Shown here piece after piece: positions 12,265-16,265 of a stretch of 64,000 nucleotides of DNA. The notes under the pieces were generated by a model. That model was not told the DNA's origin, ran no database searches, and saw only the letters and a list, made by a program, of their open reading frames with translations. The DNA comes from a virus (Duplodnaviria > Heunggongvirae > Uroviricota > Caudoviricetes): positions 24,579 through 88,578 of IMG/VR virus record IMGVR_UViG_3300028591_000102. One strand, written 5' to 3'. How positions within the stretch are numbered: position 1 is the stretch's first letter; every line of letters begins with the position of its first letter. The translations under genes were made by a program, and so were the position numbers.

Positions 12265-12440
12265 TCCGCAGGACTTTTTATTAGATGTTTAACATCTAAA
12301 ATATTATAATAAAAAAGAACCCAAGACTTAAATCCTCACGCTGGCGGCTACATCTTGGGTTTTCGGCACCGAATTACCCTACGGCTCGGGAATGTTCCTT
12401 GTTTATAAGGGTCGAGTCACATTAAACTTAGACCACACGA

Positions 12441-12552
12441 TGGTGGAATGTGGGAGAATTGAACTCCATCCTTACGGATCGACATTTGCAATGCCTACGT
12501 TATCATCTTGCGATTTACCTCGGTGGCTACCCTGATGCCACTTTCACATCCC
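12441..12552 (-). tRNA. Non-canonical tRNA-like RNA (112 nt; 8/4 acceptor/T stems, GCA anticodon loop, long variable arm, expanded D region)
   Basis: GGGATGTG pairs with CACATTCC-ACCA; T arm GGAG-TTCAATT-CTCC; GGCA-TTGCAAA-TGTC; variable hairpin ATCC-GTAA-GGAT; encoded CCA. Confidence 0.6.
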
Positions 12553-12641
12553 ATAAAAGAAGGGGTTTAGGAAACCCCTTGGAAACAATTGGCGGTTAGT
12601 GCGATTGTCTAACCTTTAAGAGTGACGTGCTTAACTCACCA

Positions 12642-12980
12642 TTACGCCCTACGGTAAGTGTTCGGCTTGCCTGGAATCTTAACGATTTCATCCTGCCACA
12701 GATTATTCAGAGCATACTGAACATTGTGGCGGGTCATGCCCTTGGCGGTAACTTCGCCTTCGATTTCGCCCCACAGGTCAGCACAAGTCATAGGACTGTT
12801 GGTCAGATTGTCCACAATGACATCGTGAATGCCTTCATAGGCGGCGGCACGAGCCGCCTTTTCTTCGGCGCCCTTGTTCAGTTCGGCTTCTACTTCTTCC
12901 AGAACGCCGGGATAGCCGTCAGAAAAACTGGGAATGTCGTGCAGAACCTTGGAGATAGTTTCGAGAGTCGCTTTCTTCAT
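12642..12980 (-). CDS. Winged-helix-like DNA-binding protein (paralog 1)
   Basis: SPMTCADLW...TRHNVQYALNNLW...KPNTYRRA; similar to 15532-15852. Confidence 0.6.
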   Translation of the reverse strand: MKKATLETISKVLHDIPSFSDGYPGVLEEVEAELNKGAEEKAARAAAYEGIHDVIVDNLTNSPMTCADLWGEIEGEVTAKGMTRHNVQYALNNLWQDEIVKIPGKPNTYRRA

Positions 12981-15531: not shown

Positions 15532-15852
15532 TTAGGCGAGAGTGTAGGTGTTCGCCTTGCCGGACTTGTCCACGGTCACTTCGGCAGACCACAGATTGGT
15601 CAGACCGTAGACAATCTTGCCACGGCTCAGACCGGTGGCATCCGCAATCTCCTGCGCGGTCACAGGGGCATTAGCGGAACGGATGGTGTCGATGACCGTA
15701 TCGTGCATATCCGCATACACGGCGCGGTTGGCTTCGGCTTTCGCCTTGCCCTTATCCAGTTCAGCGACAATCGCTTCACGGATTTCATCGGCGTTCTCAA
15801 TGGCATTGCCATCGAGCAGGGAAACGAGGGACTCAAGATACGCTTTCTTCAT
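15532..15852 (-). CDS. Winged-helix-like DNA-binding protein (paralog 2)
   Basis: APVTAQEIADATGLSRGKIVYGLTNLW HTH pattern; start ATGAAGAAAGCG shared with paralog 1. Confidence 0.7.
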   Translation of the reverse strand: MKKAYLESLVSLLDGNAIENADEIREAIVAELDKGKAKAEANRAVYADMHDTVIDTIRSANAPVTAQEIADATGLSRGKIVYGLTNLWSAEVTVDKSGKANTYTLA

Positions 15853-16265
15853 AGCGTTAGCCTTTCTGGTTTGTGAGGTTTTCCTTCCTCTTTTCATATA
15901 TATCTTACCACATTTTGTGGAAGATGTCAAGTGTTTTTTTGTTCCAAGGGAGGTTTCCCTTTGTTGCGTTTCCGCCACGGTTTTACCCTTCGTTTACTCC
16001 GCTCAAGTTATCACCTTTCGTCCCTTGGAACATCCTTATTATAGCACAGGATTTGCTTCTTGTCAAGAGGAAATTTTTTCGGAAACCAAATGGAGTTGCC
16101 TACTAATCCGATTCTTCGGACTCCAATGGGGAACTTTATCGTGTTCTCTCACGCTCCCTCTGACAGTTATAATTATACTCAAAATTTATGAAATGTCAAG
16201 CATTTGACTTAGATGTTTAACATCTAAGGTATTGGGTTTAGGTGGGACAAAAACGTCCCACCTTC

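Follow-up and report, generated by a model that had tools for sequence, protein, structure and literature searches.

The locus at positions 12552-12441 on the minus strand of the window, by which we mean the whole 64,000-nt stretch of phage DNA that was analysed, raises the question of what kind of RNA it specifies: a tRNA of unusual shape, a derivative of tmRNA, a tRNA mimic with a task of its own, or a chance fold. The standard programs pass over it. ARAGORN at default settings found neither a tRNA nor a tmRNA, whether in the window or across the 152,578-base record, and the 79-nt Cys-like fold that it forced at relaxed thresholds was poor, its acceptor stem being broken, and was rejected. 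Rfam searches at the gathering score yielded no family at the RNA in the window, nor in the rest of the record, and a search with E values up to 10 of 601 nt around the locus returned only unrelated weak matches outside the RNA. RF00005 did not match the copies of the RNA in four related phage genomes (G001-G004). The initial annotation had named these programs as a check and an ordinary degenerate tRNA as the result that would speak against an unusual RNA; no canonical tRNA match was obtained. Similar DNA was not found in GenBank phages, and the exact 3' half of the RNA had no match in IMG/VR.

Homologues were found through the neighbouring gene. Relatives of the gene upstream of the RNA (12980-12642, 112 aa) occur in five IMG/VR contigs, and in one of these, L006, an evident homologue of the RNA occupies the corresponding position. 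A covariance model was built from the window RNA and this homologue, and pattern scans were run over viral, genome and metagenome collections, the later patterns being anchored on the D loop, the start of an extra hairpin and the T loop while the acceptor stem was left free. Applied to the pattern-scan matches, the model recognised 65 copies, 45 of them distinct, with scores of 55-134 bits and lengths of 105-158 nt. They come from rumen- and gut-type metagenomes and from phage contigs; one lies on a contig binned with an Acutalibacteraceae genome. The window RNA, 112 nt from G1 to the encoded CCA (12441-12552, minus strand), scores 131.5 bits (E 3e-28) and is the only copy in the 152.6-kb phage record. 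Each of the genomes G001-G004, three of which are more than 95% complete, likewise contains exactly one copy, and neither second copies nor variants with other loops were found within the same genome. The complete relative G005 lacks the RNA, which is therefore dispensable. The family is undescribed, absent from Rfam and seen across rumen and gut phages.

Covariation among phage homologues, which had been suggested as a check, supports the fold. Standard pairs occupy 98.1% of the cells in the alignment of 45 distinct sequences, compared with 87.8% in shuffles, and when the partners are slid by 1-3 columns pairing falls to only 37-62%. Fourteen of the 26 pairs have changed on both sides, and none of 500 shuffles reached the observed values. 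The both-sided changes affect five of eight pairs in the acceptor stem, three of five in the D stem, three of nine in the extra hairpin and three of four in the T stem. Because the alignment was fitted to the model, pairing is favoured somewhat, yet the margin is large and every helix contains compensatory changes. The fold energy of the single sequence is only mildly better than that of shuffles (z = -1.9), so that the tRNA-like fold is supported by the homologues and not by the energy. As judged by sequence comparison, the locus is a real, conserved phage gene for a tRNA-shaped RNA.

The RNA begins with the 5' strand of the acceptor stem (12545-12552, minus strand, as are all parts of the RNA), 8 nt that include the G of the G3.U70 pair and whose eight pairs are formed in 99.7% of cells, five having changed on both sides. 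A 3-nt linker leads to the D arm (12523-12541), in which a 5-bp stem, paired in all cells and changed on both sides at three of its five pairs, carries the 9-nt loop AUCRGGGNA. The loop is consistent with the usual A14, G18, G19 and A21; the motif is constant within the set, yet it was fixed beforehand by the search patterns behind most matches. The D arm is followed directly, with no linker, by an extra conserved hairpin of 25 nt (12498-12522; 94.7% paired). It consists of a 6-bp outer stem, GGUAA facing GAU, a 3-bp inner stem and usually a GNRA-type cap, and its inner stem covaries, an A-U pair being replaced by G-C in 14 copies and a U-A pair by C-G in 15. The GGUAA strand was fixed by most search patterns; GAU was left free, yet it is present throughout. 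We take GGUAA/GAU to be a UAA/GAN-like internal loop. Internal loops with UAA opposite GAN are an established motif engaged in tertiary contacts; the name UAA/GAN was not met in a literature search. A K-turn was also considered for this hairpin and rejected by inspection, as the bulge and the G-A positions do not fit. The oversized D region that had been described at the outset hence resolves into a normal D arm and one discrete conserved hairpin after it: the 25-30 extra nucleotides do exist as the single 25-nt hairpin at 12522-12498, but the GTGGC/GCCAC pairing assigned to them is the D arm itself.

The next hairpin (12481-12495, 15 nt) has 4 bp and, in the window, the 7-nt loop UUGCAAA; its likeness to a tRNA-Cys anticodon loop, pointed out in the initial annotation, is real, and the motif is conserved in the family as U-R-CAAA. 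It is followed by a third small hairpin (12468-12479, 12 nt) of 4 bp with a GUAA cap. A hairpin before the T arm, previously read as a class-II variable arm, is accordingly present in the window, but it is optional in the family, occurring in about 32 of 44 parsed copies and missing from the roughly 12 in which the pseudo-anticodon hairpin is longer. The T arm (12453-12467) has a 4-bp stem, paired in all cells with three of four pairs changed on both sides, and the loop UUCAAUU. The 3' strand of the acceptor stem (12441-12452) supplies U70, the discriminator A (43 of 45 distinct copies) and CCA (encoded in 41 of 45). The D loop with its GG and the T loop, of the form UUCRANY, are invariant in the set, both being partly fixed by the search patterns; given the expected A, GG and A in the D loop and a canonical T loop, a tRNA elbow should be able to form. 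At pair 8, 44 of the 45 distinct copies have G-C and one has A-U, and a fifth pair in the T stem is impossible because the base 5' of that stem cannot pair with the partner of G8. The 8/4 split is therefore real, and the 8-bp acceptor stem, 4-bp T stem, encoded CCA and discriminator A that were first noticed at 12552-12441 are kept in the homologues.

The acceptor end carries the clearest signature of function. Pair 1 is G-C in 44 and pair 2 in all of the 45 distinct copies. Pair 3, in a stem that the search patterns left free, is G.U in 42, A-U in two and G-C in one; G.U or U.G fills 93% of the cells at this pair, against about 1% at the other acceptor pairs, while pairs 4, 5, 6 and 7 switch freely among Watson-Crick types. 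The discriminator is A in 43 copies, G in two and never U. Among the three copies without G.U at pair 3, two have the G discriminator and the third lacks CCA. The main determinants are G3.U70 for AlaRS and U73 together with the GCA anticodon for CysRS (PMC5389517). All sequence features of an AlaRS substrate, G1-C72, G2-C71, G3.U70 and A73, are found in the family, and the U73 of a CysRS substrate with a GCA anticodon is not. The AlaRS identity set that had been noted in the single sequence is thus real and conserved (G3.U70 in 42 and A73 in 43 of 45). Alanine charging is predicted because G1-C72, G2-C71, G3.U70 and A73-CCA are all kept, and cysteine charging is not predicted because U73 is absent; by these identity rules, the RNA should take alanine, not cysteine. 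Alanine identity is the best-supported functional clue, although G3.U70 could serve a partner other than AlaRS.

A different picture emerges for the anticodon-like loop. U-R-CAAA occurs in 43 of the 45 distinct copies, with G at R in 34 and A in nine (the exceptions are L137 and L016), and only the wobble-like base varies, as it would in a genuine anticodon; both versions would read UGY. The arm that bears the motif has stems of 3-9 bp, some of them bulged, and loops of 6-18 nt across the family, and its distance from the elbow lacks the constancy that decoding requires; a canonical 5-bp stem with a 7-nt loop at a constant distance from the elbow does not characterise the family. A 7-nt loop on a stem of 3-4 bp is found in the window and its closest relative L118, both with 4 bp, and in L103. 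The D stem is continued, with no linker between, by the tetraloop-ended extra hairpin. The working Cys anticodon GCA proposed in the initial annotation is thus not borne out: since its distance from the elbow varies, the loop is regarded as a non-decoding pseudo-anticodon, and we infer that the U-R-CAAA arm is a variable-arm-like appendage. Those members with a 7-nt loop on a short stem (window, L118, L103) might nevertheless decode.

Codon usage in the phage was considered as well. TAG is a sense codon in its late genes, with 171 in-frame TAG codons in one frame of 5,760 codons, and replaces CAG. A role of the RNA as TAG suppressor was rejected: it has no CUA triplet, and a separate tRNA(CUA) exists in G005, which has no copy of the RNA, and in L190. 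The tRNA(CUA) genes of L176 (5318-5410, minus strand) and L190 (11608-11697, minus strand) are 90-93 nt long, a long-variable-arm size that is unexpected for a glutamine suppressor. The record that contains the window (G000; 152,578 bases, TAG-recoded, 79% complete) displayed no canonical tRNA in ARAGORN and Rfam searches. Related genomes have 18-28 ordinary tRNAs each; their arrays sit near the genome ends, and the arrays of G000 probably lie in the missing 21%.

Several known RNAs share parts of this design. The (8/4) allo-tRNAs and other bacterial and phage 8/4 tRNAs (Mukai et al., PMC5389517) have in common with it the 12-bp branch split 8/4. Such tRNAs occur in Clostridia, in the rumen and in phages; some have G3.U70 and are charged with alanine, and some are thought to be non-translating regulatory RNAs (PMC5389517). 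Compared by description and leaving aside the 'E-loop' 8/4 tRNAs, allo-tRNAs are built with one anticodon arm plus a long variable arm, whereas the phage RNA has an extra hairpin after the D arm, an ordinary tRNA-type D loop and an anticodon-like loop on an arm of variable length; the four-arm cloverleaf with long variable arm and functional anticodon arm is not seen in the family. Engineered allo-tRNAs whose variable arm bears a pseudo-anticodon or an aptamer (PMC7590224) resemble it in that a tRNA body carries an additional recognisable hairpin, with an anticodon-like loop off the decoding axis. They are laboratory designs with a working anticodon arm, unlike the natural family described here, in which a decoding arm is not evident.

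The tRNA-like domain of tmRNA shares G3.U70, A73, CCA and the T arm, and tmRNA is charged by AlaRS without decoding. It differs in its 7/5 branch, the lack of a D stem, the long helix leading to pseudoknots and the tag frame, none of which is present in the phage RNA. As a candidate tag frame, GCA opens a frame of five codons in the window, but in the relatives the frame stays open to the 3' end, and this reading was dropped. The full D arm, the lack of a conserved tag frame, the lack of a tmRNA match and the lack of an SmpB gene in the record all speak against the initial suggestion of a tmRNA-derived domain. Genes for AlaRS, FemAB and a CCA-adding enzyme were also not found in the record, which is 79% complete, so that partner genes may be missing from it. 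Canonical tRNA-Ala matches the RNA in the identity of the acceptor end and in the D and T loops, and UUGCAAA matches the anticodon loop of E. coli tRNA-Cys. In contrast to both canonical tRNAs, the RNA has an 8/4 instead of a 7/5 branch, five or six helices instead of four, a length of 105-158 nt, and A73 in place of the U73 needed by CysRS. Non-decoding partial imitation of tRNA is a feature that it shares with the bacterial Y RNA YrlA and with B. cereus tRNA-Other. The ends of YrlA lie in its Ro-binding stem, and its acceptor-like stem is closed; in the phage RNA the acceptor end is open and carries CCA, and the TROVE Pfam model detected no Ro gene in the record. tRNA-Other is charged by LysRS and not via the alanine set.

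The surroundings of the RNA bear on how it is made. In the window, a terminator-like hairpin of the upstream gene (12560-12580, minus strand) ends 7 nt before G1, and relatives of the same subgroup have the same hairpin, then U-rich sequence, then G1. The upstream 112-aa gene (12642-12980, minus strand), with a promoter-like site at 13064-13036, belongs to a winged-helix-like paralogue family, a member of which adjoins the RNA in 13 of 15 loci, mostly upstream and sometimes on both sides. One paralogue has weak HTH matches; the proteins neighbouring the RNA gave no informative Pfam or PHROG matches. The small proteins encoded at 12642-12980 and 15532-15978, both on the minus strand, are paralogues with a common C-terminal winged-helix-like end. 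One large subgroup of the RNA family has a consensus promoter of its own, in which TTGACA and TATAAT are separated by 17 nt and the latter ends 11 nt upstream of G1; the promoter of the next cassette follows directly. In the subgroup of the window, the RNA lies about 7 nt past the hairpin of the winged-helix-like gene, and in many members a strong terminator follows CCA within a few nucleotides. Four copies are members of tRNA arrays, where 3-8 nt separate them from same-strand tRNA genes. These flanks suggest that the RNA would be made and trimmed like a tRNA, often as a separate early unit.

Where tRNA genes occur nearby, one of them recurs. Of the eight loci with any tRNA in the vicinity, seven have tRNA-Lys(UUU) as the closest or next closest one, and in four of those seven it is the sole tRNA of the locus. 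In relatives, moreover, tRNA-Lys(UUU) genes (L177:1647-1781, plus strand; L180:588-735, minus strand; also in L186, L187 and L190) have anticodon loops that are interrupted after the third base by inserts of 62-75 nt. The inserts are themselves tRNA-like: their acceptor stem has 7 bp and in most of them G3.U70, their T arm has 5 bp, and they terminate in ACCA. ARAGORN missed the interrupted genes; those in L177 and L180 were matched by RF00005 at about 52 bits. A homologous element of 72 nt (L108:7059-7130, plus strand) lies 4 nt upstream of an intact tRNA-Lys(UUU). This element and another at L005:3522-3610 (plus strand) are short 8/4 tRNA-like elements with G3.U70 and no D arm, and the one in L005 fills the slot held in the window by the 112-nt RNA. 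In G004, an insert and a free-standing copy have identical acceptor sequences. The covariance model of the 112-nt family matches neither the tRNA-Lys inserts nor the 72-nt element. They nevertheless hint that alanine-type tRNA-like elements form a broader set among these phages. Beside the interrupted tRNA-Lys of genome G003, at L180:1-377 (minus strand), there is a ROOL RNA (RF03087, 177.7 bits, cut by the locus end), and ARAGORN reported in the related phage contig L187 (3714-3787, minus strand) a tRNA with a four-base anticodon (agtg).

Taken at even chances, the reading that we prefer is that of an alanine-chargeable, non-decoding tRNA mimic that is made early and probably acts on a host factor that recognises tRNAs. 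The parts needed for an L shape are kept, namely the 12-bp acceptor/T branch (8/4), the D arm and a T loop that could form the elbow. By the identity rules, RNase P would cut the 5' end as it does in tRNA and AlaRS, not CysRS, would charge the RNA with alanine; its geometry would keep it from decoding on the ribosome. A stable, highly expressed early mimic might then occupy or divert a host factor that recognises tRNAs, for example a defence nuclease directed against tRNA or a tRNA modifier, with the tRNA-Cys-like loop and the alanine acceptor end as the putative recognised surfaces. Among tRNAs, tRNA-Lys(UUU) is the one classically attacked by anticodon nucleases and by PARIS. Phage tRNAs counter tRNA-cutting defences (PMC11464382, PMC10264068). 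The link to such a conflict is drawn from the proximity of tRNA-Lys(UUU), from an RNA ligase gene encoded in the phage record and from the precedent of phage tRNAs as counter-measures (PMC11464382, PMC10264068). A decoy role by itself, judged from this context, we would put at about one in three.

Of the competing explanations, a decaying pseudo-tRNA or a chance fold would account for the failure of standard tRNA finders, yet it is scarcely credible: the family comprises 45 distinct copies, all four helices show compensatory changes, and the loops are invariant. A purely cis-acting element, either a tRNA-shaped signal at which RNase P cuts or a selfish element akin to the tRNA-Lys inserts, with no function as a free RNA, appears unlikely. 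The shorter alanine-type elements that interrupt the tRNA-Lys(UUU) anticodon loops of relatives, the one located 4 nt before an intact tRNA-Lys and the acceptor sequence common to the insert and the free-standing copy of G004 speak for it. However, in one subgroup the RNA stands apart as a cassette that is driven by a consensus promoter of its own and contains no gene in need of processing, and a separate early unit of this type argues against a mere cutting signal; in addition, conservation of the D loop, the extra hairpin and the loop motif greatly exceeds the requirements of RNase P, and each carrier genome has one copy.

Two further explanations were considered. In one, the RNA is a working missense tRNA that inserts alanine at UGY (Cys) codons and tolerates the extra hairpin as an insertion at position 26. 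The loop matches that of tRNA-Cys, and U33, C35, A36, A37 and A38 are constant while the wobble-like base alone varies; 8/4 tRNAs with G3.U70 insert alanine in E. coli (PMC5389517), and tRNAs bearing an additional hairpin can still translate (PMC7590224). The wide variation in the stem and loop of the arm opposes this reading, as do the ordinary tRNA-Cys(GCA) and tRNA-Ala(UGC) of both G001, a carrier, and G005, a non-carrier. Moreover, the zinc-ribbon CxxC motifs are intact in early and late genes and the use of Cys codons is unremarkable. Because Cys codons build these motifs, a wholesale reading of UGY as alanine is not credible, and the general Ala-for-Cys mischarging offered in the initial annotation finds no support; a missense tRNA has little probability. 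The other explanation, in which the RNA donates alanine without a template, is improbable to a similar degree; the RNA would act in rescue like a tmRNA that lacks a tag, serve as substrate in RqcH alanine tailing or block it, or supply a transferase. It draws on the alanine acceptor set in common with tmRNA, on the selection of tRNA-Ala by Firmicutes RqcH via an anticodon stem-loop with G35 (PMC8373112), on the loop, which reads U-G-C-A in another register, and on the use of TAG as sense in late genes, a setting in which ribosome stalling could matter. Against it are the full D arm at the place where SmpB would bind, the lack of a conserved tag frame and of a tmRNA match, the absence from the record of genes for SmpB, AlaRS and FemAB, and the nine of 45 copies that have A instead of the G relevant to RqcH.

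The mimic hypothesis can be extended to the shorter elements. One possible, though doubtful, generalisation is a new class of alanine-chargeable mimics directed against host tRNA-directed immunity or ribosome quality control, which would comprise free-standing forms and shorter inserts linked to tRNA-Lys(UUU), inside it or directly before it; the latter would be removed by tRNA-processing enzymes and the interrupted tRNA resealed by the phage RNA ligase. If the RNA is charged and does not decode, it would be a natural viral aminoacylated tRNA mimic beside tmRNA and the tRNA-like ends of plant viruses, and it would help to understand how host factors that read tRNA shape are dealt with by phages that have reassigned stop codons, large sets of tRNAs and RNA ligases. 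As the whole family is missed by standard tRNA finders and Rfam, it is absent from annotations of phages and of the rumen; the covariance model built here could seed its description. As a natural case of a tRNA body that accommodates a fifth and a sixth helix, the family is also relevant to tRNA engineering.

The intergenic region downstream of the RNA contains further conserved sequences. About 50 nt away, at 12311-12390 (minus strand), lies a second conserved non-coding element, which has no Rfam family. It consists of a short hairpin followed by a long terminator-like hairpin, the stem of which covaries while its interior is conserved in L002-L005, and it is found with or without the tRNA-like RNA. 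A 19-bp palindrome at approximately 12280-12300 (TTAGATGTT A AACATCTAA) ends the intergenic region; it is kept in most of L002-L006 and is probably the cassette palindrome of the early array.
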